Assembly: GCA_031285485.1 (NCBI GenBank)
Contig: JAITWC010000023.1
Location: 1 to 28,863 of the forward strand
Length of the DNA: 28,863 nucleotides
Reading direction: 5' to 3'
DNA from: Alistipes sp.
GTDB taxonomy: Bacteria; Bacteroidota; Bacteroidia; Bacteroidales; Rikenellaceae
Numbering within the stretch: position 1 is the first letter of the stretch; each line of letters begins with the position of its first letter. The position numbers were made by a program, and so were the translations under genes. Shown piece after piece: positions 2,359-28,830 of the stretch. Under the pieces are notes generated by a model. It ran no database searches and was not told the origin of the DNA. It saw only the letters and a list, made by a program, of their open reading frames with translations.

Positions 2359-2552
2359 ATTCAACTAAACGGAGTCGTTTGGTATAATATTGGAATGATA
2401 TTCAACCAAATGACACTGTTCAGTCTAATCTCAAATTGCGATTCAACCAAACAACGCCGATCGGTCGAATAACAAACTGAGATTCGACCAAACAACACTG
2501 TTTGATTCAATCTCAAAATAATTTTAGACCAAACGACGTCGTTTGGTCTAAT
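2359..2552. repeat. Tandem array A: 5 x 41 bp (30-bp AT-rich imperfect palindrome + 11-bp variable linker)
   Basis: Units start at 2359, 2400, 2441, 2482 and 2523; the last holds a perfect 28-bp palindrome TTAGACCAAACGAC|GTCGTTTGGTCTAA (2524-2551). Confidence 0.9.
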
Positions 2553-2729
2553 AACACCATCTTCGCGGGCATGAACGGGACGAAACACACCCCGATCCGC
2601 TCCGGGGAGGTGTCAGCGGTGGCGGCGTGGCCCCACGCGGAACGACTGCATCGACCGGCCGGCCGACGATACCCGCTGTCGGGGCACGTTTCGGGGCCTG
2701 CACCCCGAAAGCAGCCGCTCCCGCCGGAC

Positions 2730-2778
2730 GAACAGGGAAGGGGATCGAAAGCAACAGCTTCGATCCCCTTCCCTGTTC
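2730..2778 (-). other. Perfect 20-bp inverted repeat (stem-loop) 8 nt downstream of the GH51-GH97 stop
   Basis: GAACAGGGAAGGGGATCGAA (2730-2749) / TTCGATCCCCTTCCCTGTTC (2759-2778), 9-nt loop; no U-tract follows on the minus strand. Confidence 0.75.
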
Positions 2779-2786
2779 CGGGTGTG

Positions 2787-5700
2787 TCAATTGGACAGGA
2801 CGAATCCGCCGCGGGGCTGGAGGGTGACTTTCACACTCCGGCCGCGGACGACATCCACCTCGCTTGCGACCGGGGCGCGCGACGGTTCGTCGCCGATGAG
2901 CGTCGCCCTCGAACCGGCCATCATCGGCAGGTCGAGTTCGAGTTCGAGGGCATCTTCCGTGGCGTTCACACCGCCGATGTACCATTTGTCGCCGCTGCGG
3001 CGCGCAATGACGGCGTAACGTCCGGGATAACCGTCGACGTAGCGCGTCTCATCCCACGTGGTGGGCACCTTCCGCATGAAATCCATCACGAAACCGCTCG
3101 TGCCGGTGAGGTTGTCGGGCGTGATGGCGAACATCTGCACCGGATTCTGGAACAGCACGGCCGTCGCCAGCTGGAAGGCGTCGGTGGTGAGACGCTCCGC
3201 CCCGCCGGTGTTACCCTTGTTGAGGAATTTGTTGAGCAGAACGCCGCCGAACTCCATCACCCCTACGCTGTTGCGGATGAAGGGGTGGAGCGAGGCGTAG
3301 TGGGCCTCGTTGTTGCGCACGTCCTGCGAGAAGATCAGCATCTCGGAGGCCAGCACCGCCTCGCTGCCGACGAAGTTGGGATACATCCGTTCCCAGCCGC
3401 GGGGCAGGGTGCTGCCGTGAACGATTATCATCAGCCCGTGGTCGTTGGCGTCCGACAACACGTCTTCGTACATGCGCATGGTCTCCTGCTTGTCGCCGCC
3501 CCAGAAGTCGACTTTCAGACCTTTCACTCCTATCTTTTGGAGCCACTTCATCTCCTTTTTGCGTTGGATGGAGGTGTTCATCCTGCTGCGCGGACCCTGG
3601 GGTGCGTCGTTGACGGTGCCGTTGGAGTTGTACCACAGGAACACGTCGACCCCTTTGGACCGGGCGTACCGGACGAGTTCCTCCATCCGTTCGTAGCCGA
3701 TGTTGGCGTCCCACAGCGCGTCGATCAGAATGTACTCCCAGCCCATCTCGGCGGCGAGATCGATGTATGTCACCTGGTCGTCCCAGTTCATGCTTGCGTC
3801 CTGCCACACGATCCAACTCCATGTTCCGCGGCCGTATGTGTAGTCGGTCGAAGGTTCGTAGAGCGGCTCTACGAGGTCGGAGGTGATGGTCGTCTCGACG
3901 ATCGGTGCGAGGTCGTCGCCCACGGTGATGGTGCGCCACGGAGTCACTCCGGGCAGACCCACCTGTGCGCCGACGCTCCCGAACCCGTTGTTCTCGGTCG
4001 GATCGGGGTAGGCCACCGTGTAGACACCGTTTTTGATGGCGCTCAGGTGCGACCCGCAGTAGAGGCTGGTCACTCCCGTTTCGGAGAGCAGCGCCCAACC
4101 GTTGTCGCCTATCTTGAAGAGGCCCGGGAAGACGTAACCCGTCGGCGAAGTGGTTTGTGCAATGGGCACATCGGCCTGGTATCCCGACTCGTAGCTGGGC
4201 GAAGTACGTGCGAATCCGCCCATGGTAGTCATCATGTAGGAGACGAAGGCGGTGGTTTGTGCGGGGAAACGGAAACCCGTCGCCTCGCTCTCCACCACGG
4301 CCGCGCGCCGGTCGCCCCACATCGGAAACTCGTAGCGCAGGGCCACATCGCGATCGCTCACCTGGAACACCACCGTCATCTGGCGTCCGGCCACGTTTTG
4401 GAACGTGTAGTTGAGCGTGTTGGCGTGGTATTCGTTATGCGAACTTTTGATCTTTGCCTGGGTGTAGGTTTTGTCGACCCTGCCCGCGGAACTCTCCACG
4501 AACGTGAGGTTGGAGGTGAAATCGCCCTCGTTGGAGACCAACCCCAGCGGCGAATCTTCGAGGATGGCGGTACCGCCGCGGTCGACCGAGTAAAGCAGCT
4601 TGCCTCCCTCGATGAAGATCCGTGCGCTCAGTTTTCCGTCGGGGCTGGCGACAGTCACTCCTTCGTGCGAGTAGGTGTTGACCGACGATTTCTCTATGGA
4701 CAACACTCCGGCCGAGTAAGGTTCGACGGTGAGGACGATGGCATTGTTCTCCGGTACGATGGCCCGGTGCATCAGTGCCACGGCGTTCTTGTTCTCCATG
4801 CTGTTTTCCACCGTCAGCGAGCCGGGGGCGTAGTAGTCATACTGCGCGTCGCCCGCGATGTTCGCCCAGTCGCCCCGCACAGTCAGCGTGCGTTCGCGTT
4901 CGGTGGGGTTCACGATCTTGACTATCACCCGGCGTCCATCTTCCGACAGCGTCGTGGCGATGTTCATGCCGGCCGCGCGGCCGGTGTAATCGAGCCTGTA
5001 CTTCGAGAAGTTGTCGTGCCACAGGCGCGTCACCTGATAGTTGGGAGCGGCGAAAGCGTCCTTGTAGTCGAAGTTGATGAAGGCGTTGTTCCACCCGTCG
5101 GCATCGGTGCGGCGCAGGAACAACGCGGCGGCTCCCAACTCGACGACCGGGGTCTGCTCACACATGTTGAGGAAACCTCCGGCGAAAAGGCCCGTCCGCC
5201 AGTCGATCGAGTTGAGGTTCCACTCCGAAATGTAGAGCTTGATGTTGGGGTTGGAACTTGCGGCGAACATATCGGCGTAACGCTGGTACTGAGTGCGCAG
5301 ACGCTCGGGGCCGGTTGCGTAGCCATTCGCACCTTCATAGTGGTGGAGGCTCATGTAGTCGAAGTAGTTGGCCGAACGCTCTATAAACTCAGCGTCCTCT
5401 GGGAATCCTCCGCACACTATGATCTTGATCGTCGGGTCGATTCGGCGCATGCCTTCGGAGAACTTGCGCACGGCGGCCTCGTATTTCTCGATGCCCATCT
5501 CCCACATCTCGTTGTCGATCTCCCAATACTTTATGTTGTAGGGCTCGGGATGGCCGTTGGCGGCGCGTTTGCTGCCCCACGCTCCGGTGGCGGGTTCGTT
5601 ACAGTAGGCCACCCAGTCGAGTGCGTCCTGATAGATACCTTCGAGTTCTTCCTCGGGGCGGTCGAAACCGACGCGCACCACCATCACCGGCTCTGTGTTG

Positions 5701-7202
5701 ATCTCGCGGCAGAAACGAATGAACTCGTCGGTGCCGAAGGCGTTCTGGTCGTAGTCGAGCCACATCCAGTGGGGCCACCTCTGGCGGTCTTTCTGCGGAC
5801 CGATCGCCCACTTCCAGTTGTATTGCGCCACGTAGCCACCGCCTGGCCAGCGCATCGAGGTGGGGCCGAGATCCTTGATCATCTTCAGAATATCGGGACG
5901 GAATCCGCCCAACTCAAGACCCGTGCGGGAACTCATCGTCACCTGGTCGACCTGCACCGAGCCGCCTTCGACCTGTATTGCGAAGTCGGCGTCACCGGCC
6001 CATGCTTCTCCCTCAAGCGTGAAAGAGTATTCTTGCCACTCGCCCGTGGGACGGCCCAGAGTCTGGCTCGCCACGGTTCGGTCTCCGGCCTTCAACGCGA
6101 CCGACAGTGTGCCCCGTCCGTCACCCTTTGCCCAAATCGAGCCGATGTAGGCTTCGCCGCTCTTGATGCTCTGCGGACCCTGCGTTATACCCGACAGCGA
6201 TGTTGCGGTTATCCGTTGCGAGTAGTCCATATTGACTGCGTCGCCCTTCACCATCTCGAAGGTTCCGCCGCCGAACGACTTCCACTGCGGAGCCACGGCC
6301 GGGATCTTCACATCCTCCGGCATGCCTTCGAACACCGTGGTGCGGCCGCCGTTGGTCGTGACTTTGATATTGCGATAGAGCGCCTCGGTGTAGTTGACCC
6401 ACAACACGAGGTCGTTGATAGCTTCGGCGTCGAGACCTCCGGCGTTCAACACCTGACGGTCGTCCCACCACACGCGGGCCCTGTCGCCCTTCACGGTTAT
6501 GCGTAGCTTGTGCCACGTGCCGCCCGTGTCGAGCCCTTCACGCGGGATGTAGTGGTCGGCCGGTTGCCACGAGCGCACGGTGCGCATCTGGCCCCGGGTC
6601 TCCGTCTCGGCGTCCACCCGGCGCGTGATGGCGAGGTTGGCCTTCGAGAGCGCCTCCCGGGCCCGCTGCAACTCTTGGGCGTTCGATCCCGGCATACCCG
6701 AGATCATCCCGGCGCGTTCGTACTGCGGGTCGAATATGCGGAAGAACCACGGCTCACCCCCGGCTCCGTTCTTGAAAGCGAAACGCATGTCGAGTGCGCC
6801 GCCGCTCCACCGACGTCCGGCCAGTTTGAAGGCGCGCCAGTTGACGTCCATAGTGATCTCGTAGTCGTTGCCCTCTACCGAGGTGAGGCGGATGGGCTGT
6901 TCGTAACGAGTGGGGGAATGAAGAACGGCGTCATCGTCGGCATACCAGCCGTCGAAGTATCCGTCGCGGGGAGTGATGCCCGGAAAATGTTCCGGCTCGA
7001 ACGTGCGCTCGAAGATCATCTCGTTCCAGACACCGTTACTCGGCGAAAAATAGATGTGTTCGAACAACTGTCCGTAGATCTTGCTGTCGATCAGACCGGC
7101 CACGCGGTTGGTCTCGATGTTGATCTCGGCGCGCTGTGCCACCGAGGGCGGCACGACAAAAAGCGTTGCGGCAATCAGAGGGATGAGATTTTTTTTATTC
7201 AT
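2787..7202 (-). CDS. Secreted multimodular glycosidase (1471 aa): GH51 alpha-L-arabinofuranosidase-like module with inserted beta-sandwich domains, fused to a complete GH97 module
   Basis: Start moved to MNKKNLIPL (7202), which gives a signal peptide and lies downstream of the -7 box. GH51 motifs IYGQLFEH, GFRPD..SMRWPGG, GTDEF, WEIDNEMW, ISEWN. GH97 motifs SPDGKL, YILIDALWD, GLKVDFWGGD, HGSTLPRGWERMYPN, VPTTWDET. Confidence 0.85.
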   Translation of the reverse strand: MNKKNLIPLIAATLFVVPPSVAQRAEINIETNRVAGLIDSKIYGQLFEHIYFSPSNGVWNEMIFERTFEPEHFPGITPRDGYFDGWYADDDAVLHSPTRYEQPIRLTSVEGNDYEITMDVNWRAFKLAGRRWSGGALDMRFAFKNGAGGEPWFFRIFDPQYERAGMISGMPGSNAQELQRAREALSKANLAITRRVDAETETRGQMRTVRSWQPADHYIPREGLDTGGTWHKLRITVKGDRARVWWDDRQVLNAGGLDAEAINDLVLWVNYTEALYRNIKVTTNGGRTTVFEGMPEDVKIPAVAPQWKSFGGGTFEMVKGDAVNMDYSQRITATSLSGITQGPQSIKSGEAYIGSIWAKGDGRGTLSVALKAGDRTVASQTLGRPTGEWQEYSFTLEGEAWAGDADFAIQVEGGSVQVDQVTMSSRTGLELGGFRPDILKMIKDLGPTSMRWPGGGYVAQYNWKWAIGPQKDRQRWPHWMWLDYDQNAFGTDEFIRFCREINTEPVMVVRVGFDRPEEELEGIYQDALDWVAYCNEPATGAWGSKRAANGHPEPYNIKYWEIDNEMWEMGIEKYEAAVRKFSEGMRRIDPTIKIIVCGGFPEDAEFIERSANYFDYMSLHHYEGANGYATGPERLRTQYQRYADMFAASSNPNIKLYISEWNLNSIDWRTGLFAGGFLNMCEQTPVVELGAAALFLRRTDADGWNNAFINFDYKDAFAAPNYQVTRLWHDNFSKYRLDYTGRAAGMNIATTLSEDGRRVIVKIVNPTERERTLTVRGDWANIAGDAQYDYYAPGSLTVENSMENKNAVALMHRAIVPENNAIVLTVEPYSAGVLSIEKSSVNTYSHEGVTVASPDGKLSARIFIEGGKLLYSVDRGGTAILEDSPLGLVSNEGDFTSNLTFVESSAGRVDKTYTQAKIKSSHNEYHANTLNYTFQNVAGRQMTVVFQVSDRDVALRYEFPMWGDRRAAVVESEATGFRFPAQTTAFVSYMMTTMGGFARTSPSYESGYQADVPIAQTTSPTGYVFPGLFKIGDNGWALLSETGVTSLYCGSHLSAIKNGVYTVAYPDPTENNGFGSVGAQVGLPGVTPWRTITVGDDLAPIVETTITSDLVEPLYEPSTDYTYGRGTWSWIVWQDASMNWDDQVTYIDLAAEMGWEYILIDALWDANIGYERMEELVRYARSKGVDVFLWYNSNGTVNDAPQGPRSRMNTSIQRKKEMKWLQKIGVKGLKVDFWGGDKQETMRMYEDVLSDANDHGLMIIVHGSTLPRGWERMYPNFVGSEAVLASEMLIFSQDVRNNEAHYASLHPFIRNSVGVMEFGGVLLNKFLNKGNTGGAERLTTDAFQLATAVLFQNPVQMFAITPDNLTGTSGFVMDFMRKVPTTWDETRYVDGYPGRYAVIARRSGDKWYIGGVNATEDALELELDLPMMAGSRATLIGDEPSRAPVASEVDVVRGRSVKVTLQPRGGFVLSN

Positions 7203-7253
7203 AGGGTTTAGCAGGTATTGGTTTGGTTCCGGTTCCATTGAACTACGGACTCG

Positions 7254-7261
7254 CAAAGTTA
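7254..7261 (-). promoter_or_regulatory. Bacteroidetes -7 promoter box for the GH51-GH97 gene
   Basis: TAACTTTG on the minus strand, 51 nt before the ATG at 7202; -33 box not canonical. Confidence 0.6.
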
Positions 7262-7416
7262 CTCAACTTTGGATAAAGAAAAAACACCACTGTCCACTAA
7301 AAGTTGGGCGGATTAAAAATTAAACAAATTTGGTTCACGTGAGCCATCGGGTTCTTTGAAAATATTAAGATTCGATCTGTCAAAAAGGTCTTCAAACGGG
7401 GTTTTGTCGGTGACGC

Positions 7417-7600
7417 AAACGGTAAATTTCTCGTTTTGGCCGTTGCCTCCGGGGGGCAAGCAGTAAATTCGTCATTTTGGTCGTTGCCTCCCGGGGGCAA
7501 GCGGGAAAATCGTCTTTTTGGCCGTTGCCCCCCGGGGGCAGGGAGGAAAATCGTCTCTTTGGTCGTTGCCCCCCGGAGGCAGGGAGGAAATTCCCCGTTT
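7417..7600. repeat. Tandem array B: 4 x 41 bp with TGCC(C/T)CC..GGGCA hairpin core, bounded by imperfect 13-bp terminal inverted repeats
   Basis: Units start at 7421, 7462, 7503 and 7544; ends AAACGGTAAATTT (7417-7429) and AAATTCCCCGTTT (7588-7600) are 11/13 complementary. Confidence 0.9.
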
Positions 7601-7602
7601 TA

Positions 7603-7645
7603 CCCCGCGGCGTCGGCCACGCAGGCGGCAACCGACGCCGCGGGG
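7603..7645 (-). other. Perfect 14-bp GC-rich inverted repeat 10 nt downstream of the thioesterase stop
   Basis: CCCCGCGGCGTCGG (7603-7616) / CCGACGCCGCGGGG (7632-7645), 15-nt loop; followed by TAAAA rather than a U-tract on the minus strand. Confidence 0.7.
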
Positions 7646-7655
7646 CGGGTGCTGA

Positions 7656-8411
7656 TCACCTCGCCGATCCTGCTATGGCGGCACGGCAGACCGAGACCCC
7701 GCTGGCGTTGCGTATGTCGAAGCGGTGGGTGACGCCGGTATCGGTGGCGGCTGCGGCGGCCGGGCAGATGGTCAGCGCCTCGCCCAGCGTTGCTTCGTGA
7801 AGGTAGTTGATGTCGAGCCTGACGGACGACAGGCCCGCCAACGCCCCGGCCGGGAGCGTGTCGACCATCCATTCGAGGTACTTCATGCTGTTCACGTGGC
7901 CGTTGAAGTCGATGTCGCTGTAAACCACGGTGTACGAACTCCCGGCGACCCCGTCCACGGGGCCCACTTTCAGGGGCCTGCCGACCGGCGGTTCGCGATC
8001 GACCAGCGAGCCGGCCCTGTTCGACAGCGACGAAAGGTCCAAAGGCCGCCGCGTGTCGAGGTCGATCATTGCCCACAGCGTCACCGCGGCCCCGAACTGC
8101 TCGCCAGCCCCGCCGCCAGCCCCGACGCCCGCAAGCGTCATGTTGCGGGTGGTGAACAGGCGCCCGTAGCCGCTCACCCAGGTGTGGATGTCGACCGGCT
8201 CCCCCCGCGAGGGAAGCCGGCGCAGCTCGACGGCCATGCGCGACAGCACCCACGAGGCGTTGCCGGTGTTGAGGTCGCTCACCCCGAAACCCGACATGTC
8301 GGCATCGTCGCCGGCCGCGCCGAGTATCAGGTCGCCCATCGTGCAGAGCCTTGCGTGCTGCGAGGCGTCGATGTCCCTCGACCCGATGCGGTAGCGGTAT
8401 GTTCCTGCCAT
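7656..8411 (-). CDS. Acyl-ACP thioesterase (FatA/FatB-like double hot-dog fold)
   Basis: SRDID near the N-terminus, WVLSRMAVELRRLP, W.SGYGRLFTTR, and catalytic-type YSDIDFNGHVNSMKYLEW; 12 bp downstream of trxA. Confidence 0.85.
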   Translation of the reverse strand: MAGTYRYRIGSRDIDASQHARLCTMGDLILGAAGDDADMSGFGVSDLNTGNASWVLSRMAVELRRLPSRGEPVDIHTWVSGYGRLFTTRNMTLAGVGAGGGAGEQFGAAVTLWAMIDLDTRRPLDLSSLSNRAGSLVDREPPVGRPLKVGPVDGVAGSSYTVVYSDIDFNGHVNSMKYLEWMVDTLPAGALAGLSSVRLDINYLHEATLGEALTICPAAAAATDTGVTHRFDIRNASGVSVCRAAIAGSAR

Positions 8412-8423
8412 CGGGAGCGGGGG

Positions 8424-8741: not shown

Positions 8742-8748
8742 ATCTTTA

Positions 8749-12333: not shown

Positions 12334-12338
12334 AGGTG

Positions 12339-12346
12339 CAAAAGTA
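12339..12346 (-). promoter_or_regulatory. -7 promoter box for dnaE (near-leaderless)
   Basis: TACTTTTG(CA) on the minus strand ends only 5 nt before the ATG. Confidence 0.55.
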
Positions 12347-12375
12347 GCGATTTTTTGCGTAATTTTACGTCCCCT

Positions 12376-14643
12376 ATGAGCTATGCCGACATAATTTTGC
12401 CTCAGGCGGGGCCGCCGTTTTTCACTTACCGCGTCGGTGAGGATCTACTCGGCAGGCTTTCGTCGGGGTGTGCCGTGGCGGTGCCTCTCGGGGCGAGGCA
12501 GATCGTGGGAGGGATAATTTTGCGGGTGCATGACGTGGAGCCCGCGTTTCCCACCCGGCCGGTGCGGCGGTTGCTGTTTTCGCGGCCAATCGTGTCGCCG
12601 GAGCAGATGCGGCTGTGGGAGTGGATGGCCGAATATTACATGTGTACTCCGGGAGAGGTGATGACCGCCGCGCTGCCAGCGTTGCTCAAACCGGCCGGAT
12701 TCTCGGAGGAGGAGTTTGCCGCCGATGAGTTCCAGGCGCGCAGGGTGCGAACGGTGGCTTTGACCGCCGCCGCTTCGGGCGAGGGGGCTTTCAATGAAGA
12801 GTGCGAGAAACTTCGTCGCCGGGCACCGAAACAATACCACGCTCTGGTGGAGATCGCGGCCCTTGGCCCCGGCCCCATTCCGCGGTCGGAACTGAAGGCC
12901 GGTGCGGCCGTCCTGGTCGCGCTCTCCCAAAAGGGGCTTATCGCGATCTCGGAATGCGAGGCGGCAACACTTCCGGCGAACGATCCGCCGGCGGCGTTCC
13001 GGCTGCCGGAGCTTTCCCCGGCCCAACGAACCGCGCTCGATGAATTGCGCGAGGCGTTGCGATACCACAACACTGCTTTGTTGTTCGGAGTCCCGTCGAG
13101 CGGAAAGAGCGAGGTTTGTTTCCATGCCATAGCCGGAACGCTGGCAAAGGGGCGCGACGTGCTGCTGATGCTGCCCGAGATCGCCCTCACCACCCATTTC
13201 GTGCAGCGTGTGAGGCGTGTGTTCGGCCCCGGCGTCGTGGTTTACCACTCTGCTCTCAGCCCGAGGCAACGCGCCGAAACATACATCCGTCTGGCCCGCT
13301 CCACCGGAGGCACGCTCGTCGTGGGGGTTCGTTCGGCCATCTTCCTGCCCCTCCCGCGACCCGGGCTCATCGTCGTGGACGAAGAGCAGGATTCGAGTTA
13401 CAAACAGTCCGACCCCGCACCGCGCTACAACGCCCGCGACGCCGCGATAGTGCTGGCGCAGGAGAGCGGCGCCAAAGTGATCCTCGCCAGCGCCACCCCC
13501 TCGCTCGAAACGTGGGCCAACGCGCAAGGCGGAAAATACGGCCTGGTGGAGTTGACCGAACGCTGGGGGGGCACGCCGCCGCCCGGGGTGACGATCTCCG
13601 ACACCCTGCGCTCCGCCCGTCGCGGCGAACGACGCGGGAACTTCAACAAAGAGCTGCTCGACCGCATGGCCGGGGCGCTCGGCCGCGGCGAGCAGGCGAT
13701 CGTGTTCCGCAACCGGCGCGGGATCGCCCCGTTCATCGAGTGCGCCGAGTGCGGCCACGTCCCGCGGTGCGGCCACTGCGCCATTCCGCTGAGCGTCCAC
13801 CGCGACTCGCTCCGGTGCCACTACTGCGGCGCGTCGACCCCGTTGCCGTCGCTGTGTCCGGCGTGCGGCGGCATGAATCTCGCCACGAAGGGTTTCGGGA
13901 CCGAAAAGATAGAGGAAGAACTCGCCCGCCTGTTTCCCGCGGCGCGCGTGGCCCGGCTCGACCGTGACAGCACCACATCCGAAAGGGCTTTTCGCCGAAT
14001 AATCGGCGACTTCGAGGCCGGAGCGACCGATATTCTCGTGGGCACGCAGATGGTGACCAAGGGGCTCGACTTCGCGGGGGTGTCGGTCGTTGGGGTGCTG
14101 GGTGCCGACAACCTGCTCAACCATCCCGACTTCCGCGCGTCCGAGAACGCCTTCGCGCTGATTATGCAGGTGGCGGGGCGCGCGGGCAGGCGCGACGTGC
14201 GGGGGCAGGTGGTGATCCAGACCGTGTCGCCCGGCAGCCGCCTCATTGCCCAGGCCGCCGCGGGCGATTACCGCGCGATGGCCGCCGACCTGCTCGCCGA
14301 ACGCGCCATGTACGGTTATCCGCCCTATGCGAGGTTGGTGCGGGTGATGCTGCGCCACTCCGACCGCGAGGTCCTGGGGGCCGCCGCCGCGCGGTTGGCG
14401 GAGCTGCTGCGCCCGGTGTTCGGCGAACGTCTGCTCGGGCCCCAACCCCCGGTGGTGGAAAAAATAAAGGGCGAATACGCCCTCATCTTCCTGCTCAAAG
14501 CGCCTCGCGGAACGCTCTCCGACGGCGCGGGGGCCATGCCGATGTCGACCGTGCGCGAAACCCTCCGTGCCACCTCCGCCGCCATTCTTGCCGTCCCCGA
14601 TTTCCGCCGGATCACGCTTACTTTCGATGTCGACCCGCGGTGA
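12376..14643 (+). CDS. priA: Primosomal protein N' (replication restart helicase), 755 aa
   Basis: True start MSYADIILPQ inside the long fused ORF. N-terminal 3'-binding domain (LWEWMAEYYMC), Walker A GVPSSGKS, DEEQDSSYKQ..PRYNARD, four CxxC Zn ligands, KGLDF, QVAGRAGR. Confidence 0.95.
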   Translation: MSYADIILPQAGPPFFTYRVGEDLLGRLSSGCAVAVPLGARQIVGGIILRVHDVEPAFPTRPVRRLLFSRPIVSPEQMRLWEWMAEYYMCTPGEVMTAALPALLKPAGFSEEEFAADEFQARRVRTVALTAAASGEGAFNEECEKLRRRAPKQYHALVEIAALGPGPIPRSELKAGAAVLVALSQKGLIAISECEAATLPANDPPAAFRLPELSPAQRTALDELREALRYHNTALLFGVPSSGKSEVCFHAIAGTLAKGRDVLLMLPEIALTTHFVQRVRRVFGPGVVVYHSALSPRQRAETYIRLARSTGGTLVVGVRSAIFLPLPRPGLIVVDEEQDSSYKQSDPAPRYNARDAAIVLAQESGAKVILASATPSLETWANAQGGKYGLVELTERWGGTPPPGVTISDTLRSARRGERRGNFNKELLDRMAGALGRGEQAIVFRNRRGIAPFIECAECGHVPRCGHCAIPLSVHRDSLRCHYCGASTPLPSLCPACGGMNLATKGFGTEKIEEELARLFPAARVARLDRDSTTSERAFRRIIGDFEAGATDILVGTQMVTKGLDFAGVSVVGVLGADNLLNHPDFRASENAFALIMQVAGRAGRRDVRGQVVIQTVSPGSRLIAQAAAGDYRAMAADLLAERAMYGYPPYARLVRVMLRHSDREVLGAAAARLAELLRPVFGERLLGPQPPVVEKIKGEYALIFLLKAPRGTLSDGAGAMPMSTVRETLRATSAAILAVPDFRRITLTFDVDPR

Positions 14644-14644
14644 C

Positions 14645-14869
14645 GCTCCGTAGGGCTACGAAGGCTTGAAAAAAGTCCGGGGAAGCCTCCGTAGGGCTAC
14701 GGAGCCTCCAAAAAAACTCGGGGAAGCTTTCGTAGGGCTACGGAGGCTCCAAAAAGTTTCGGGGAAGCCTCCGTAGGGCTACGAAGGCTCCAAAAAAGTC
14801 CGGGCAAGGCTCCGTAGGGCTACGAAGGCCCCAAAAAAGTTCGGGCAAGGTTCCGTAGGGCTACGGAGC
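14645..14869. repeat. Tandem array C: 6 palindromic cores at 41-bp period (consensus GCCTCCGTAG-GG-CTACGGAGGC + A-tract) between convergent stop codons
   Basis: GTAGGGCTAC at 14650, 14691, 14732, 14773, 14814 and 14855; ends GCTCCGTAG / CTACGGAGC are 9-bp inverted repeats. Confidence 0.95.
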
Positions 14870-14870
14870 C

Positions 14871-15938
14871 TTAAAAGTTCATCACGCTGTTCTGCCGGTT
14901 GATACTTTCGAGGTGGATCGCCTCCAAAATGTCGTTGAGGAACTCGCGGCCCAGCCCCAGCGTGTCGGCCTGCGACAGGATCCGCTCCTTGATCGCCCCC
15001 CAGCGGCTCGACTGGAGGATGGCGACGTCGTTGGCCTTCTTCACGCGGCCGATCTCCTCGCTGATGCTCATGCGGCGCCCCAGGAGCGAGAACAGCTCGG
15101 CGTCGATCTGGTCGATCTGGTCGCGGAAACGGTCGAGCGCCTTCACGAACCCGGGGTCGTCGGCCGCCTCGCGGCGCCAGTTCACGCCGCGCACCAGGCG
15201 TTCCAGCTCCGCCGGCACCAACTGCTGCCCGGCGTCGCTCAGCGCCTCGGCCGGGCACACGTGGCTCTCGACTATCAACCCGTCGTAACGAAGGTCGGCC
15301 GCCGACTGCGACAGTTCGTGGAGATACTCCGTCGTGCCCGCCATGTGCGACGGGTCGCAGATCATCATCGTCTCCGGGAACCTGCTCCGCATCTCGAACG
15401 CCAGCGGCCACATCGGAGCGTTGCGGTAACGCTGCTGCCCGAAGTACGAAAATCCCCTGTGGATAAGGCCGATGTCGTCCATCGGGATGCCAACCGCCGC
15501 GAAACGTTTCACCGCCCCGGCCCACAGGTCGATGTCGGGGTTCATCGGGTTCTTGATCATCACCGGCACCCCGCTGCCCTTCAGCGCGTCGGCCACATCC
15601 TGAACCGCGAACGGGCTCACCGTGGTGCGCGCCCCGATCCACACCAGGTCGATCTCGAACTCCAACGCACTCTCCACATGTTTGGCCGTGGCAACCTCCA
15701 CCCCGACCGGCAGTCCCGTCAGCCTCTTCGCCTCGGCCATCCACGCCAGACCCTTGAGGCCGACCCCCTCGAACGTTCCGGGCGAGGTGCGGGGTTTCCA
15801 CACTCCGGCGCGGAGCACGTCGACCACACCCGTCTCGGCAAGTTTCACGCAGGTGTCGAGCGTCTGCTCGCGCGTCTCCGCGCTGCACGGGCCCGATATT
15901 ATGAGGGGCCGCTTTGCCCCGAGTTTGAATTTGTTCAT
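14871..15938 (-). CDS. Bifunctional type I-beta DAHP synthase / C-terminal chorismate mutase (355 aa)
   Basis: Start MNKFKLGAKRPLIISGPCSAE; RAGVWKPRT, WIGART, IHRGF, DPSH, GLIVESH; C-terminal CM motif RDQIDQIDAELFSLLGRRM; 4-bp overlap with tyrA. Confidence 0.92.
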   Translation of the reverse strand: MNKFKLGAKRPLIISGPCSAETREQTLDTCVKLAETGVVDVLRAGVWKPRTSPGTFEGVGLKGLAWMAEAKRLTGLPVGVEVATAKHVESALEFEIDLVWIGARTTVSPFAVQDVADALKGSGVPVMIKNPMNPDIDLWAGAVKRFAAVGIPMDDIGLIHRGFSYFGQQRYRNAPMWPLAFEMRSRFPETMMICDPSHMAGTTEYLHELSQSAADLRYDGLIVESHVCPAEALSDAGQQLVPAELERLVRGVNWRREAADDPGFVKALDRFRDQIDQIDAELFSLLGRRMSISEEIGRVKKANDVAILQSSRWGAIKERILSQADTLGLGREFLNDILEAIHLESINRQNSVMNF

Positions 15939-18792: not shown

Positions 18793-18827
18793 GTTTTCGG
18801 TGTGCCGCGCGGTGTCGCGCGACCGTG

Positions 18828-18835
18828 CAAAGATA
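18828..18835 (-). promoter_or_regulatory. -7 promoter box of the pheA operon
   Basis: TATCTTTG(CA) on the minus strand, 35 nt before the ATG. Confidence 0.65.
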
Positions 18836-18888
18836 ATCCATCCGCCCGGAACGGCCTAATTTCCTTTCGGATTTTTTGCGTCGCCGCG

Positions 18889-18919
18889 GTTGCTAATCCG
18901 GAACTATTTATTAGTTTTG
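18889..18919 (+). promoter_or_regulatory. Rightward Bacteroidetes promoter immediately upstream of the first 55-bp hairpin element
   Basis: GTTG (18889-92) - N19 - TAGTTTTG (18912-19). Confidence 0.55.
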
Positions 18920-18926
18920 TGCCGGA

Positions 18927-18981
18927 CTCTCCGCCGGGGCGAGTTGGTTGTGTGGGTTTCCGACGATCCCCGGCGCGAGGG
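18927..18981 (+). repeat. 55-bp bulged-hairpin element, copy 1
   Basis: CTCTCCGCCGGGG - N28 - CCCCGGCGCGAGGG; directly repeated at 20748-20802 and 20820-20874. Confidence 0.9.
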
Positions 18982-18986
18982 TTCGA

Positions 18987-19069
18987 TAGACATCTTCGGC
19001 AAATAGTGTAATGAGGATTGATTTTCAGGCGTATAAATATCTTTAAACCGTATTTATCGAAGAAGCCTA
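18987..19069 (+). repeat. Left 83-bp MITE-like element with its own 19-bp imperfect terminal inverted repeats
   Basis: TAGACATCTTCGGCAAATA ... TATTTATCGAAGAAGCCTA. Confidence 0.8.
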
Positions 19070-19083
19070 TTAAAAAAATGCTG

Positions 19084-19091
19084 TACTTTTG
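19084..19091 (+). promoter_or_regulatory. -7 promoter box for the peptide/lipoprotein unit
   Basis: TACTTTTG(C), 14 nt inside the left element; the expected -33 region overlaps the element's right arm. Confidence 0.5.
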
Positions 19092-19274
19092 CTGAAACAA
19101 ACAAGAAAAGTGTAGATGCCTATGACGAAAAACAGAACCAAACAATGCGAAGAGCATGTTCTCCGACGTTCCGAACGGAACAAAAACGACACCACACCTT
19201 AACTTTAGGGACGTGGAAATATAACCAACAAACTAATTTAAATAGATCGTTTACCAAACTAACACAACAAAAAA

Positions 19275-19553
19275 ATGACAAAGAAAACATTTCTCAGCTT
19301 AGTCGGCGGCGCAGTCGCCATCGTAGCTGTGGCAGGCGTTGCCGTTAACAACGCAAACAGCACTACCAAAATGTCCGACCTCATGATCAAAAACCTTGAG
19401 GCACTGTCCCAGAACGAAGGAGGCAGTGGCGGAGGGTGCGGTTTTGCTGCGTATCAGTATGACGACGATTGGTATGAAGATTCCAAAAATTTCAGGCGGT
19501 GCGGAGATTGCGAATGGGTTAGTGGCACAAAACCGCAGTACACTCAGTGCTAA
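19275..19553 (+). CDS. NVEALA-family small secreted protein (92 aa) with Cys-rich C-terminus
   Basis: KK + hydrophobic N-terminus, SDLMIKNLEALSQNE (NVEALA-like motif), GGSGGG linker, 4 Cys; AT-rich leader. Confidence 0.8.
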   Translation: MTKKTFLSLVGGAVAIVAVAGVAVNNANSTTKMSDLMIKNLEALSQNEGGSGGGCGFAAYQYDDDWYEDSKNFRRCGDCEWVSGTKPQYTQC

Positions 19554-19603
19554 CGCGAAGAGAACGGGAAACCATTCTTTAATATTCTATCAGACGTTGG
19601 GAT

Positions 19604-20635
19604 ATGAAAAACTTGTCGATTTTGGCGTTACTCCTAACGGTAACGATTTTGTTATCGGTAGCATGCGGTGTAAGACGGGAAATAATTTCGCTTGACGCGA
19701 TACCCACAAGAAGTGTGGTTGGTGTACCTTTTGATACATCCCCCGAACTTCTCGCACCACGGCAAATATACGCTACATTAGGTGCAGTCGCTCTGTTTGA
19801 TAGAAACAACAAGAATGGTTTCCTGTCTTTTTTCGACAAGCAAACGGGCGTGCTTCGCCAATCGTGGGGCACAGAGGGAAGGGGGCCCGGTGAATTTATC
19901 CTTCCGCGCATCGTTGCGACACAAAAAGGTTTGACGGTAACATCTGCGGATGCCAATTACAGAAAATTGCGCTTTACTGACTCGCTTGAGATAGCGTTGC
20001 TGGACATGGGAGAATACGAGGAGAAGTTGATCGGCTCCAACTTCCTCTTCATAGTGAATGATTCCCGGGTTATCTCCGTCAAAGAGGGACCTAATCAGTT
20101 GCAAATCCTGAACCTCCAAACGGGCGAGGAGGAGCATGCAAACTACCATCCGCTGAAAATGCCGAGGAACATAGATCCGGTAGCCTTGAACAGCACCGTT
20201 TTTCAAGCCCATTACGCTTACCACGAGGATAGCGAACGGCTGTTTGTAGCATATCAGTATCATCCGATTGCATCTGTGATAGATGCTGCGGGAAACGGTT
20301 TGGTGGGGGAAACGCGGTTCGACTCATTCCGAAACGACATTAAGAAGGATGACCAGGGAGGTTGGGCTTATGTCGACCCAACGCTCGGCTACACCTTTAC
20401 GGCTGTATCTGACAACTTCTTTTATGCGCTCTATCAAGGTTCGAACAGGAAAATATTGAGTGCAAATATTCAAAAATCGGAGATACATAAATACGATATG
20501 TCGGGCCGACTAATTGAACGTATATTAGTTGACGAGCCTGTTTATCACTTCTCCGTCGAACTTGATGACAGTAAGATATACGCCATGTTCCTCGACAGTG
20601 AATTCATCGCCAAAGTTTGTATTTATGACATTTAA
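19604..20635 (+). CDS. Lipoprotein, probably TolB-like/6-bladed beta-propeller (BF3164-like)
   Basis: Lipobox LSVA-C21; GTEGRGPGEFILP motif typical of Bacteroidales 6-blade propeller lipoproteins; DNFFYALY and EIHKYDMSG blades; directly follows the NVEALA gene. Confidence 0.75.
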   Translation: MKNLSILALLLTVTILLSVACGVRREIISLDAIPTRSVVGVPFDTSPELLAPRQIYATLGAVALFDRNNKNGFLSFFDKQTGVLRQSWGTEGRGPGEFILPRIVATQKGLTVTSADANYRKLRFTDSLEIALLDMGEYEEKLIGSNFLFIVNDSRVISVKEGPNQLQILNLQTGEEEHANYHPLKMPRNIDPVALNSTVFQAHYAYHEDSERLFVAYQYHPIASVIDAAGNGLVGETRFDSFRNDIKKDDQGGWAYVDPTLGYTFTAVSDNFFYALYQGSNRKILSANIQKSEIHKYDMSGRLIERILVDEPVYHFSVELDDSKIYAMFLDSEFIAKVCIYDI

Positions 20636-20638
20636 AAC

Positions 20639-20722
20639 CATACTTCTTCGACAAATACCTCGAACAGATATTTGTGTGCCTGAAATTCAATGTCAATTCC
20701 CCGTATTTATCGAAGACGTCTA
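20639..20722 (-). repeat. Right 84-bp MITE-like element, an inverted copy of 18987-19069
   Basis: Reverse complement TAGACGTCTTCGATAAATA..ATTGAATTTCAGGCACACAAATATCT..GTATTTGTCGAAGAAG; starts 3 nt after the lipoprotein stop. Confidence 0.8.
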
Positions 20723-20747
20723 ATGTAGTTTTAAGTAAGGTTAGTGG

Positions 20748-20874
20748 CTCTCAGCCGGGGTGCGTTGTGTGTGGGTAAAGTTTGTCAGCCCCGGCGCGAG
20801 GGTCCCAAGTAGTTAGCGGCTCTCCGCCGGGGTGCGTTGGTGTGTGTAAGGTTCGGCAATCCCCGGCGCGAGGG
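20748..20874 (+). repeat. 55-bp bulged-hairpin element, copies 2 and 3 (72-bp period)
   Basis: CTCTC(A/C)GCCGGGG - N28 - CCCCGGCGCGAGGG at 20748 and 20820, each preceded by GTTAG(T/C)GG. Confidence 0.9.
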
Positions 20875-20891
20875 CCCAAAAAGGGCATTGA

Positions 20892-21068
20892 AAAGTTTCA
20901 CAACCCGGCCCGACCCCTCGGCGGGCATCTTGCAAAGTTTCAGAACCTCCGCAGACCCCTCGGGGGACACCTTGCAAAGTTTCACAACCCCCGCCGACCC
21001 CTCGGCGGACACCTTGCAAAGTTTCAGAACCTCCGCCGACCCATCGGCGGGCGTTTTGCAAAGTTTCA
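20892..21068. repeat. Tandem array D: 4 x 42 bp plus a partial unit, CCGCCGA-CCC(C/A)-TCGGCGG hairpin core, upstream of DUF6261
   Basis: AAAGTTTCA at 20892, 20934, 20976, 21018 and 21060. Confidence 0.95.
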
Positions 21069-21114
21069 GGGCTTCGCCGGCAACACATAAACCAACCCTA
21101 AAACAATTACGGTC

Positions 21115-21831
21115 ATGAAAATCGAAAACATTTACCTCTACCGCCTCCGCAACGACACCCATTTCCAGTTCATGCAGTACGTGGTGGCTCTGGTGAAGGA
21201 GATCGGCGCGGAGGCGCTCAGGGTCGAGGCCCAGATGGCGGCCCTGACGCTGCTCCACTCGCAGGAGGACGAGGCGCTCAAGAAGATCGTCCGCAGCGCC
21301 CTCACCGACGACATCGAGGATGCCGACCACGCGCGCGACGCCGTGTTCCGCGGCCTGTCGGACGCCGTCGTTTCGGCCACCAACCACTACAATCCCATCG
21401 TTGGCGAGGCCGCCCGCCGTCTCCGCATCGTGTTCGACACCTACGGCAACGTGGTGGCCCGAACGCTGGACGACGAGACGAGCGCCATCCACAACCTGCT
21501 GGTGGAGCTGACCACGAAAGGCGCACTGGACGCGGAGACGCTCGACCTCGGCGGATGGATCGGCGAGCTCGACCGGCTCAACCTGGAGGTACAGGGCCTC
21601 ATTCTGAGGCGTGCCGACGAGGAGGCCGAGCGCACGAAGCTGGTACTGCGCACCGTCCGTCTCGAAGTCGACGAGGCGTACCGTATTTTGGTCGAGCGGG
21701 TCGACGCGCTGGCGGTCGTGGATGGCGGCGCGGTGTACGACACGTTCATCTCGCGCCTCAACGAGATCGTCGTCCGCACCCGCGACATCGCCGCGCAGCA
21801 GGCCGGCCGCCGCGAGAAAAAAAAGTTATGA
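21115..21831 (+). CDS. DUF6261 family alpha-helical protein (HagB/HagC-like)
   Basis: RLRNDTHFQF, DHARDAVFRGL and YGNVVARTLDDETSAIHNLL resemble recalled Porphyromonas HagB/DUF6261 motifs (RLQNLEHYRF, DEERDRAYQAL, YGNVIRMNYDKETAAIENFL); no signal peptide. Confidence 0.75.
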   Translation: MKIENIYLYRLRNDTHFQFMQYVVALVKEIGAEALRVEAQMAALTLLHSQEDEALKKIVRSALTDDIEDADHARDAVFRGLSDAVVSATNHYNPIVGEAARRLRIVFDTYGNVVARTLDDETSAIHNLLVELTTKGALDAETLDLGGWIGELDRLNLEVQGLILRRADEEAERTKLVLRTVRLEVDEAYRILVERVDALAVVDGGAVYDTFISRLNEIVVRTRDIAAQQAGRREKKKL

Positions 21832-21903
21832 GTCGGGCTGCGCGCCGCAAACAAAATAACTTATAACTGCAACTTTTACTAACCGTTTAAAATAAAAAAA
21901 ATC

Positions 21904-25046: not shown

Positions 25047-25048
25047 CG

Positions 25049-26938
25049 ATGAAGCGAACCAGAATAACCATTATCGGCCTCGCGCTGCTGCTCTCCACCG
25101 TGGGAGCGGCGGCGCAGGAGGCGGTCTCCTACTTCCCGCTGAGGGACGTGAGACTGACCGCCGGGCCGTTCCTCGATGCTCAGCAGACCGACCTGCGATA
25201 CATCATGTCGATGGAGCCCGACCGACTGCTCGCGCCTTTCCTGCGCGAGGCCGGGCTGACACCCAAGGCCGAGAGCTATCCCAACTGGGAGAACACGGGG
25301 CTCGACGGACACATAGGCGGACACTATCTGTCGGCGCTGGCCCTGATGTGGGCTTCGACCGGCGACGAGGCGGTGAAGAGCCGTCTCGACTACATGCTGA
25401 GTGAGCTGCGGAGAGCGCAGACCGCCTCGGGCAACGGCTTTGTGGGCGGAACACCCGGCAGCCGCGAGCTGTGGGAGCAAGTCCGGGGAGGCGACATCCG
25501 CGCCCGCGGGTTCGACCTCAACGGCAAGTGGGTGCCGCTCTACAATATCCACAAAACCTACGCCGGACTACGCGACGCATGGCTCCACGCCGGGAGTGAA
25601 CTTGCGCTGACGATGCTGGTGGAACTAACCGACTGGATGATCGGCGTAACGTCCGGTCTCTCCGACGAGCAGATGCAGGACATGTTGCGCAGCGAGCACG
25701 GCGGTCTCAACGAGGTTTTCGCCGACGTTGCGGCAATCACCGGCGAGGCGAAGTACCTGACGCTCGCGCGCAGGTTTTCGCACACGGCAGTGCTCGAACC
25801 GCTCACCCGAGGCGAGGACAAACTCACCGGAATGCACGCCAACACCCAGATCCCAAAAGTGATCGGCTACGAACGGATAGCCCAACTCTCCGGCGACGAC
25901 ACCGCCTGGGGCCGTGCCGCCGAGTGGGACAGGGCGGCGAGGTTCTTCTGGAACATCGTCGTGAGCGACCGTTCGGTTGTGATAGGCGGCAACAGCGTGA
26001 GGGAGCATTTCCACCCCACGGACGACTTCTCGGCGATGCTCGAAGACGTGCAGGGGCCCGAGACGTGCAACACCTACAACATGCTGCGCCTGACGCGAAT
26101 GCTGTTCGAGACCACTCAGGAAGCACGTATGGCCGACTACTACGAGCAGGCGCTGTACAATCACATCCTCGCGTCGCAGAACCCCACCCGGGGCGGATTC
26201 GTCTACTTCACTCCCATGCGCGCGGGCCACTACCGCGTCTACTCGCAGCCCCACACCTCGATGTGGTGCTGCGTCGGTTCGGGGCTTGAGAACCACGCCA
26301 AGTACGGCGAGTTCATCTATGCCCGAAGCGAAGACGCACTTTGGGTCAACCTGTTCATCCCCTCGCGGGTCGAGTGGAAGGAGCGGGGCATCACCCTGTC
26401 GCAAAGCACCGGTTTCCCCGACTCCGGGCGCGTCGAGTTCACCGTGGAGCAGGCTCCGAGGGGAGCTTTCGCCGTGAAGCTGCGCCGTCCGGGCTGGGCA
26501 CGCGGGGTTAAGGTGTCGGTCAACGGGAAAGAGCAGCGCACCGACGCCACCGGCGACTACATTACCGTAGAAAGACGCTGGAGGGCGGGCGACCGCATCA
26601 CCCTCGACGTGGATATGGCGGTGACGATGGCCCGCGTACCCGACGGGAAAGACCAGTGGGCGTTCATGTACGGCCCCGTTGTGCTCGCCACGCCGATGGG
26701 CACCGACGACCTCGAAGGACTGTTTGCCGACGAGGGACGCATGGCCCACGTCGCCGGCGGGACGCGCGTCCCCACCGAGAACGCACCCGCGCTGAACGGC
26801 TCGCCCGAGGCTCTGCCGTCGATGCTGCGAAAGGACGGCGCGGCGCAACTCTCTTTCACCCTCGCGGGCGGCATGAAGTTCATACCCTTCTTCAGGCTCC
26901 ACGAAGCCCGGTACGCAATCTATTTACCTAACCGATAA
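25049..26938 (+). CDS. Secreted GH146 (GH127-like) beta-L-arabinofuranosidase
   Basis: Signal peptide; YPNWENTGLDGHIGGHYLSA, HANTQIPK, PETCNTYNML, WCCVGSGLENH (Cys3-Zn motif). Confidence 0.88.
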   Translation: MKRTRITIIGLALLLSTVGAAAQEAVSYFPLRDVRLTAGPFLDAQQTDLRYIMSMEPDRLLAPFLREAGLTPKAESYPNWENTGLDGHIGGHYLSALALMWASTGDEAVKSRLDYMLSELRRAQTASGNGFVGGTPGSRELWEQVRGGDIRARGFDLNGKWVPLYNIHKTYAGLRDAWLHAGSELALTMLVELTDWMIGVTSGLSDEQMQDMLRSEHGGLNEVFADVAAITGEAKYLTLARRFSHTAVLEPLTRGEDKLTGMHANTQIPKVIGYERIAQLSGDDTAWGRAAEWDRAARFFWNIVVSDRSVVIGGNSVREHFHPTDDFSAMLEDVQGPETCNTYNMLRLTRMLFETTQEARMADYYEQALYNHILASQNPTRGGFVYFTPMRAGHYRVYSQPHTSMWCCVGSGLENHAKYGEFIYARSEDALWVNLFIPSRVEWKERGITLSQSTGFPDSGRVEFTVEQAPRGAFAVKLRRPGWARGVKVSVNGKEQRTDATGDYITVERRWRAGDRITLDVDMAVTMARVPDGKDQWAFMYGPVVLATPMGTDDLEGLFADEGRMAHVAGGTRVPTENAPALNGSPEALPSMLRKDGAAQLSFTLAGGMKFIPFFRLHEARYAIYLPNR

Positions 26939-26953
26939 TCGCAAAATTAAAAC

Positions 26954-28498
<1,545 letters not shown>

Positions 28499-28525
28499 TC
28501 TCCGGGCGTAATAAAATCGCAACGG

Positions 28526-28557
28526 AAAGGGCGCCCTTCGCGGGGTGCCCTTTTTTT
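28526..28557 (+). terminator. Intrinsic terminator of the ara operon
   Basis: AAAGGGCGCCC-TTCGCG-GGGTGCCC followed by T7, 27 nt after the stop. Confidence 0.9.
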
Positions 28558-28581
28558 ATTGAAATCAATTTTATATATTTG
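28551..28581 (+). promoter_or_regulatory. Promoter overlapping the terminator tail and pointing into array E
   Basis: TTTT - N19 - TATATTTG (28574-28581). Confidence 0.55.
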
Positions 28582-28602
28582 TGCCGGACGCCCGGGGCGG
28601 AA

Positions 28603-28830
28603 CGCCGTCCGCGGACGGCGGGGCAAAAGAGCCCTCGGAAACGGTTTCGTCCGCGGACGGCGGGGCGAAAGAGGCCTCGGAAATGGTTTCGTCCACGGAC
28701 GACGGGGCAAAAGAGGTCTCGGAAACGGTTTCGTCCACGGACGACGGGGCAAAAGAGGTCTCGGAAATGGTTTCGTCCGCGGACGACGGAGCAAAAGAGC
28801 CCTCGGAAATGGTTTCGTCCACGGACGGCG
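28603..28830. repeat. Tandem array E: 6 cores CGTCC(G/A)CGGACG at 42-bp period; ends form CGCCGTCC/GGACGGCG inverted repeats
   Basis: Cores at 28606, 28648, 28690, 28732, 28774 and 28816; the first lies in a perfect 18-bp palindrome (28603-28620). Confidence 0.95.

Follow-up and report, generated by a model that had tools for sequence, protein, structure and literature searches.

Tandem palindrome arrays with a fixed 41–42-bp period and their linkage to DUF6261 genes in a termite-gut Bacteroidales genome

Five intergenic tandem arrays with repeat units of 41 or 42 bp are located in a 28,863-bp stretch of DNA from Alistipes sp. (hereafter the window), which represents the whole of contig JAITWC010000023.1 (C191 in our numbering) of GenBank assembly GCA_031285485.1. 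This genome (G000) comes from a termite-gut metagenome according to the run metadata, and its assembly comprises 1.52 Mb in 193 contigs with a GC content of 60% and a completeness of 65%. The window's DUF6261, GH97, GH127 and araA genes assign it to Bacteroidota, and its 599 araA relatives, of which the best 80 were retrieved, carry Bacteroidales names. We find that the five arrays belong to a genome-wide class of palindrome arrays with an invariant period, members of which lie directly upstream of genes for DUF6261 (PF19775) proteins. An initial annotation, made from the sequence of the window, had described five arrays at 41–42 bp with a dyad core, and Tandem Repeats Finder (TRF) recovers all of them (A–E), with the dyad core present in each unit and with 0–2% indels. 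The arrays and the DUF6261 gene of the window are arranged as follows.

2363–2549, no strand assigned: array A, five decayed palindromes of the ACCAAAC-N6-GTTTGGT type at an exact 41-bp spacing, read by eye
2396–2517: the TRF row for array A, period 41, 3.0 copies, 70% matches (weak)
7434–7593, minus strand: array B, 41 bp, 3.9 copies, 87% matches, TTGC-type
14646–14865, no strand assigned: array C, 41 bp, 5.4 copies, 86% matches
20888–21069, plus strand: array D, 42 bp, 4.3 copies, 85% matches
21115–21831, plus strand: DUF6261 (PF19775) gene, 238 amino acids, all-helical and acidic, Pfam E-value 9.5e-36
28606–28827, plus strand: array E, 42 bp, 5.3 copies, 92% matches, at the contig end

Three of the arrays are orphans, with no DUF6261 gene nearby. 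Array A is AT-rich and lies between two minus-strand genes. Array B, upstream of a GH51-GH97 gene, consists of units of TTGCCCC-CCG-GGGGCAA (17 bp) with a 24-bp linker, and the strand with its A-tracts, the minus strand, is also the sense strand for the two adjoining genes. Array C has the core CTCCGTAG-GG-CTACGGAG plus an A5-6 tract and fills the interval from the stop codon of priA (ending at 14643) to that of the convergent DAHP synthase gene (ending at 14871). Array D, with the core TCCGCCGA-CCCC-TCGGCGGA, is co-oriented with the DUF6261 gene and ends 46 bp upstream of its ATG; downstream of this gene follow araA, araB, a GH127 gene and a GH51 gene. Array E has the CGTC-tagged core TCGTCC-AC-GGACGA. 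Because an array on contig C15 is 96% identical to array E, shares its right flank and precedes a DUF6261 gene located 47 bp further on, we take array E to be gene-linked as well, probably in the manner of its C15 homologue.

The period seen in the window dominates the genome. TRF reports 248 non-overlapping tandem repeats in the whole assembly, 68 with a period of 41 and 87 with a period of 42, and none with a period of 31–40 or 43–54; the sharp peak at 41–42 (155/248) is the one that the initial annotation had anticipated. After merging TRF rows of period 40–43 we count 166 arrays, in keeping with the genome-wide system suspected from the window, at a density of one per 9 kb rather than the estimated one per ∼6 kb. 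The arrays contain 2–10 copies as assembled (83–420 bp) and amount to 32.6 kb, or 2.1% of the assembly. Their mean period is 41.56 bp (4 × 10.39), and higher-order periods of 82–84 and 123–126 bp as well as patchwork substitutions are seen among them.

A typical unit consists of a palindrome and a linker, which has a constant length of 24 bp in most units. The palindrome measures 17 bp in 41-bp units (7+3+7 or 6+5+6) and 18 bp in 42-bp units (8+2+8, 7+4+7 or 6+6+6), and an odd or even palindrome center thus accounts for the period being either 41 or 42. The commonest frame, TTGC-N9/10-GCAA, is present in ∼40% of the arrays (67 arrays in the largest family), and its inner 2–4 stem pairs vary between arrays yet remain complementary. 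Two TTGC units 24 bp apart are found 255 times in the genome, compared with 0 matches for the reversed control. TTGC is the main tag at the stem foot; the corresponding arrangement is GTAG-GG-CTAC in array C and CGTC-CACG-GACG in array E. All arrays run head-to-tail, keep a single linker orientation and a constant period, and have the form P-(L-P)n, with a palindrome at both ends; what had been annotated as terminal inverted repeats on three of the window arrays is merely this palindrome at either end. Units within an array are 70–98% identical, with linkers repeated throughout. Measured against the array consensus, the identity of 5′ units is 0.929, that of internal units 0.924 and that of 3′ units 0.903, and in the absence of a polarity gradient a CRISPR-like addition of units at one end (CRISPR, short palindromic repeats that are clustered and regularly interspaced) is unsupported. 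We also considered ‘two alternating dyads’ per unit, a description that is not well supported, the second dyad in the linker being weak (4.5 complementary pairs of 12 versus 3.0 in shuffled linkers).

Clustering at 70% unit identity yields 38 clusters, all of them at period 41 or 42. The largest comprises 60 arrays and contains both periods, and the next hold 11, 9, 8, 7 and fewer. The five window arrays fall into five separate clusters, and the earlier statement that their sequences cannot be aligned therefore holds between families, but not genome-wide, where 60 arrays form a single cluster. That period, rather than sequence, is the conserved trait is supported by all 38 clusters.

The arrays are real repeats that fragment assemblies and no artefact of the assembler that produced this metagenome-assembled genome (MAG). 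One Logan contig of the source run covers 13492–14828, extending 183 bp into array C with 0 differences, and Logan contigs break at arrays B and D. The k-mer depth is 2–3 times higher in array-holding bins, and 38 of the 166 arrays lie ≤300 bp from a contig end. The arrays thus break short-read assemblies, a point of relevance to MAG quality.

We arrived at DUF6261 through homology shared by the flanks of different arrays. G000 contains 18 Pfam-level matches to this family and, with fragments included, 24 members, making it the largest paralog family of the genome. An array is located ≤300 bp upstream of 17 of the 18 DUF6261 copies with an assembled 5′ flank, compared with 118 among the 1095 other genes (p = 1.7e-15, odds ratio 141). 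In our own gene calls, the distance from the array end to the DUF6261 ATG is 28–130 bp. An expansion of DUF6261 paralogs flanked by arrays, proposed from the window as something to look for, is hence present. The paralogs share 33–80% amino acid identity and, at a median of 46%, are old; every gene-linked array has a private palindrome. The genes 3′ of DUF6261 are mutually unrelated (araA, EPSP synthase, alcohol dehydrogenase, a fimbrillin-like gene, an esterase, a TMEM260-like gene and a DKNYY gene), and no DUF6261 gene was found at the araA loci of other Bacteroidales (0/80, the best 80 of 599 araA relatives). Array E (on C191) and the C15 array are homologous from the first unit onward and have the right flank in common, which suggests a cassette whose left edge is formed by the array.

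Several further features were seen around the arrays. Window positions 18822–21400 hold a low-GC cassette, array D and the DUF6261 gene. A counterpart of this segment was not found in three other termite-gut metagenomes, in which diverged, mostly 90–99% identical, fragments of the neighboring genes are present, and the segment is therefore accessory. Immediately upstream of array D, a GC-rich hairpin element, separately described in the initial annotation as 55 bp long, occurs as a 72-bp × 2 direct repeat (20740–20879). In the array-E family, C126:2204–2425 and C95:25–246 have ∼24 bp of left and ∼40 bp of right flank in common and diverge beyond; this may reflect strain variants within the bin or the duplication of a segment that extends slightly past the array. 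Runs of AT-rich heptamers (AACTCAT / AATTCAT, for example AACTCATAACTCATAATTCATAA) are found between several arrays and the DUF6261 ATG, and also beside some orphans, at the following places in G000.

C12, 4606–4730: AT-rich heptamer run
C48, 307–390: AT-rich heptamer run
C180, 12474–12501: AT-rich heptamer run
C109 and C70, array flanks: AT-rich heptamer runs

Independent metagenome contigs and other families of the order show the same pairing of array and DUF6261 gene. A three-unit TTGC pattern (24 fixed bases) matches at least 120 metagenome contigs, whose GC contents span 33% to 64%, and the contigs selected in this way also hold 42-bp arrays outside the search pattern. We searched these contigs and loci of genomes G025 and G626 with a DUF6261 profile, and 18 of the 22 DUF6261 open reading frames (ORFs) detected are located directly behind an array. 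A 41-bp array precedes a DUF6261 gene in G034. There are 38 DUF6261 paralogs in G626 (complete, 4.3 Mb) and 19 in G510, and a TRF-visible 41/42-bp array lies upstream at 8 of 12 sampled loci from these two genomes. Orphans are common elsewhere too: of 62 metagenome arrays with both flanks complete, DUF6261 follows only 9. Within the GTDB family of Alistipes, TTGC arrays were found in 0 of 400 other genomes, and the 24 closest relatives searched for DUF6261 contain neither the gene (0/24) nor arrays, a phyletic co-occurrence that extends to absence. No 41/42-bp array was found in 400 kb of a genome from the same genus. Two arrays of G472, a genome from another family, show 98% unit identity (C73:14078–14277 and C71:25952–26053) and are situated at contig ends, where a partner gene may be unassembled. 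By name, DUF6261 homologs come from Bacteroidales, Prevotellaceae, Cytophagaceae and Fibrobacterota MAGs, mostly on contigs of 1–2 kb. We found no published account of 41/42-bp arrays in Bacteroidales or of arrays paired with DUF6261 genes, and the papers we found that mention DUF6261 concern Streptococcus.

An AlphaFold (AF2) model of the window DUF6261 protein, calculated from a 58-sequence alignment, is all-helical with a predicted local distance difference test score (pLDDT) of 96.5; the single sequence gave no usable model (pLDDT 39). In AlphaFold DB and the ESM Atlas, it matches clusters that bear the name ‘Hemagglutinin protein HagB’, and PF19775 is found in every member of the Atlas cluster. 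Matches to the four-helix bundles of Avd and S23p (Z about 9) were discarded, as they do not reach the noise level for helical proteins. DUF6261 has no match in PADLOC or NCBIfam.

In our own codon-based gene calls, arrays are found in all types of intergenic gap (45 ++, 49 −−, 18 convergent and 16 divergent), with no preference for any class over background, and the genes that adjoin them are unrelated housekeeping or glycan-use genes. The GH51-GH97 gene next to array B is a single ORF.

2787–7238, minus strand: ORF of 1483 amino acids (1489 from an upstream TTG at 7256), with an ASD1/GH51-like module and a complete GH97 (N-terminal, catalytic and C-terminal domains)

Over all arrays with co-directional neighbors, the A-tract strand tends to coincide with the sense strand (34 cases versus 14, p = 0.006).

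As favored explanation, to which we assign a probability of roughly 0.42, we propose a DNA-level, helically phased platform of dyads that is tied to DUF6261, with protein binding being predicted. The five window arrays would be members of a helically phased palindrome-array family acting as cis partner of DUF6261 (HagB-like) genes. Each unit would provide one dyad, in its commonest form TTGC, 2–4 variable bp, a loop, the complement and GCAA, and because the unit is fixed at 41–42 bp, corresponding to four turns of B-DNA, all dyads would be presented on one face of the helix. Selection as a sense-strand RNA hairpin should lead to more G:U pairs than A:C mismatches. Stem mismatches on the A-tract strand of 411 units amount to 54 G:T and 56 A:C, and this missing RNA-strand signature, together with the symmetric dyads and the four-turn period, argues for action as double-stranded DNA. 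Of the two mechanisms offered by the initial annotation, phased protein binding or DNA wrapping is thus the better fitting one. The likeliest role of the arrays would be that of a platform for the side-by-side binding of a dimeric protein, as at sopC/SopB-type arrays, with the adjacent DUF6261 product or a host factor as candidate binder. Array and gene appear to duplicate as one cassette, with the array at the left edge, and arrays probably grow and shrink by whole-unit unequal recombination or slippage. In this termite-gut Bacteroidales lineage the system would have expanded to at least 24 genes and ∼166 arrays, most of them now orphans that may have arisen by gene loss or by spread of arrays alone.

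Short truncated DUF6261 N-termini follow arrays at C125, C184 and C67, and these remnants argue for gene loss as the origin of some orphans. Only 25 orphans have their palindrome in common with a gene-linked array. Among the TTGC arrays we distinguish ∼13 symmetric half-site types with 1–8 arrays each, four of which include a gene-linked member. Such types are compatible with a set of cognate arrays for each paralog, without proving it.

A number of observations weigh against the proposed platform. No DUF6261 ORF or remnant is found within 900 bp of 147 of the 166 arrays (35 of the 147 are near contig ends), and the 141 different consensus palindromes are far above the number of paralogs. A pure double-stranded DNA platform needs no orientation, yet the A-tract strand of orphan arrays is biased to the sense strand (29 versus 13, p = 0.02), and gene-linked arrays with scorable asymmetry always have the A-rich strand as the sense strand. 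Some arrays may be transcribed leaders, given the promoter-like boxes upstream of them that are described below. The inner stem bases vary while remaining symmetric, a pattern that hairpin or cruciform constraints would fit as well. The DUF6261 paralogs are acidic (median pI 5.6), and we found no recognized DNA-binding domain or fold in the family, PDB matches being generic four-helix bundles with Z scores of 10.4 or less. Finally, G472 is 97% complete and has 42-bp TTGC arrays with no PF19775 match.

A bolder version of the platform, which we consider doubtful, would make DUF6261/HagB proteins a new class of dyad-reading nucleic acid-binding proteins. Each paralog would recognize its own palindrome (TTGC-NNN half-sites in the main type) every four helical turns, and the ∼140 orphans would serve as genome-wide platforms on 2% of the DNA, a chromatin- or insulator-like layer of diversifying protein-array pairs.

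Of the alternatives, selfish hairpins similar to repetitive extragenic palindromic (REP) sequences and bacterial interspersed mosaic elements (BIMEs) survive best, although we regard them as unlikely. They would be recognized as single-stranded hairpins and copied in trans by a RAYT-like (REP-associated tyrosine transposase) Y1, an IS110-type or another enzyme; head-to-tail insertion beside a site that each unit recreates would set the period, and DUF6261 would merely be a preferred neighbor. The repeats are indeed extragenic, high-copy palindromes whose stem-foot bases are conserved (mostly TTGC, with GTAG in array C and CGTC in array E), they show no preference among the gap classes, and their distribution across the order is patchy. 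Tandem, head-to-tail REP arrangements and CGTC repeats are on record in Bacteroidetes (PMC3733652). An 88-nt element is positioned precisely at the 5′ foot of TTGC palindromes in ∼19 arrays, which shows that these palindromes are insertion targets, and IS110-family fragments adjoin two arrays. On the other hand, PF01797 (Y1/HUH transposases including RAYT) has no match in the 65%-complete G000, in contrast to matching control genomes, and neither TnpB nor reverse transcriptase genes were found there. The arrays are head-to-tail with a fixed linker, unlike the inverted pairs of REPINs (REP doublets that form hairpins), they have no detectable target-site duplications or defined ends, and the 38 sequence families would require many cognate enzymes. 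Selfish hairpins also leave unexplained why arrays in one orientation precede 17 of 18 DUF6261 genes, with similar pairs in other genomes, and offer no reason for a mean period of 41.6 bp.

The 88-nt element is conserved and structured and has ∼19 full copies in G000, starting at ...GTTAC|CTCGGTCGGCTTT, containing CGCCGCTGTCGCGGCG and ending at GAGCCTCGCACCTGCGGTGCTCG|TTTGC. Nearly every copy is placed precisely at the 5′ foot of a TTGC palindrome, either within an array or at its margin, and the last hairpin (GCAyC-NNN-GrTGC) covaries. The element has no match in Rfam and was not found in the other loci examined. Its TTAC-flanked insertion recalls IS608-type targeting. Fragments of IS110-family transposases occur as well; one contains an internal TAG and two are within 150 bp of a 42-bp array. 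All of them are near contig ends, those close to arrays are broken, and no link to the arrays could be demonstrated. Copies of both in G000, outside the window, include the following.

C22, 3644–3753: 88-nt element
C143, 1869–1974: 88-nt element
C171, 3579–3681: 88-nt element
C86, 22737–23168: IS110-family (PF01548) transposase fragment
C85, 241–462: IS110-family (PF01548) transposase fragment
C1, 5271–5702: IS110-family (PF01548) transposase fragment
C3, 2739–2954: IS110-family (PF01548) transposase fragment

Somewhat less probable again is a transcribed repeat RNA, in which the array would form the 5′ leader of the DUF6261 mRNA, either as an antitoxin RNA that is cut into units, as in type III toxin-antitoxin systems, or as a hairpin leader that controls stability or translation. 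The order of promoter-like box, 3–7 direct repeats and gene resembles toxIN-type loci, where ToxI consists of 5.5 repeats of 36 nt. TAnnTTTG-like boxes are located just upstream of arrays on C180, C75 and in the window, the latter being the following.

28574–28581, plus strand: TATATTTG, matching the Bacteroidota −7 promoter box TAnnTTTG, its end 24 nt upstream of array E

These boxes and the orientation bias keep the RNA leader in play. The gap of only 28–130 nt between array and ATG, the A-rich strand being always sense in scorable gene-linked arrays and 29 to 13 in orphans, the private repeat of each paralog, and an accessory, patchy cassette of the kind seen for toxin-antitoxin and defense genes are in line with it. 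Exact TAnnTTTG boxes, however, occur upstream of only 4 in 82 arrays, which is below the intergenic background, so that there is no general promoter enrichment. The sense-strand stems have no excess of G:U over A:C, ∼85% of arrays have no partner gene, and some, such as array C, lie between convergent stop codons. In addition to having no PADLOC or NCBIfam match, DUF6261 has a helical fold that differs from ToxN/AbiQ, and no ToxN-like structural match was found. An Rfam scan of the window and 10 array loci returned only chance miRNA-like matches.

We give the lowest standing among these three alternatives to functionless minisatellites. A founder of 41–42 bp would have spread by recombination, along with the DUF6261 cassette, and been maintained by slippage and unequal crossing-over, its period held only because whole-unit events dominate. 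The higher-order periods and patchwork substitutions suggest unequal exchange, and the lack of a polarity gradient, the copy numbers from 2 to 10 and the lack of a preferred gap class are in line with this view. Yet 0 of 166 arrays have drifted to 40 or 43 bp although the families have diverged past alignment, compensating changes in the two arms have preserved the dyad in nearly all families, and unrelated contigs whose GC contents range from 33% to 64% show one and the same architecture, all of which argues for constraint rather than drift. The amplifiers put forward by the initial annotation do not fit: the 65%-complete genome yielded no RAYT-type Y1 transposase, TnpB or reverse transcriptase, a MITE (a miniature transposable element with inverted repeats) is at odds with arrays of variable copy number (2–10) and length (83–420 bp) that have no terminal inverted repeats, target-site duplications or common termini, and the 24-bp linkers are repeated within each array and thus are no unique CRISPR spacers.

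Taken together, an exact four-turn period that is kept while the sequence diverges past alignment is unusual, and this array class fills 2% of the genome and is tied to one large uncharacterized protein family across Bacteroidota and, judged by homolog names, Fibrobacterota. Period constancy, genome share and family link therefore point to a conserved, hitherto undescribed array-plus-protein system. If true, a nucleic acid-linked role would alter the reading of the HagB family. With at least 24 paralogs and ∼140 orphans, G000 is a natural extreme suited to deciding between a platform, selfish DNA and an RNA element.

Features of the system can be found in several known ones. BrickBuilt minisatellite-MITEs of Porphyromonas gingivalis have a 23-nt unit, defined leader and tail ends with small inverted repeats and one sequence family (PMC4596501). 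They too are dispersed intergenic tandem minisatellites in a Bacteroidales genome, and both may influence transcription, but our unit is 41–42 bp long, and BrickBuilt has no reported link to a protein family. REP, BIME and REPIN sequences with their RAYTs include GTAG- and CGTC-tagged superfamilies (PMC3733652). Like them, our arrays consist of extragenic, high-copy, hairpin-capable palindromes with a conserved foot (GTAG or CGTC in some units), which form tandem clusters and serve as insertion targets. They differ by the RAYT that was not found, by a main tag, TTGC, that is paired and symmetric, by a strict head-to-tail 41/42 period with a 24-bp linker and by the DUF6261 link. Type III toxin-antitoxin systems (toxIN, cptIN, tenpIN) likewise have a short, co-oriented direct-repeat array with a private repeat directly upstream of a gene and are accessory and patchy; here, however, the protein fold is unrelated to ToxN, the RNA-strand signature is missing, most arrays are orphans and the unit is a simple dyad.

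The DUF6261 protein resembles the HagB family in that its model falls into HagB-named clusters with PF19775 throughout the Atlas cluster. HagB and HagC have been described as adhesins and, to our knowledge, have no known nucleic acid role. In the F-plasmid sopC/SopB system, sopC is made up of 12 directly repeated 43-bp units, each of which includes a short inverted repeat. Our arrays share with sopC head-to-tail units of about four helical turns, one dyad per unit, several to a dozen copies and a position beside a gene that travels along. The neighbors here are unrelated housekeeping and glycan-use genes (no search aimed at ParA/ParB was made), and the partner is an acidic, all-helical protein of a domain family without a known DNA-binding fold, for which binding is only predicted. 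This genome has 166 chromosomal arrays, most of them without a gene, and dozens of diverged array-gene pairs.

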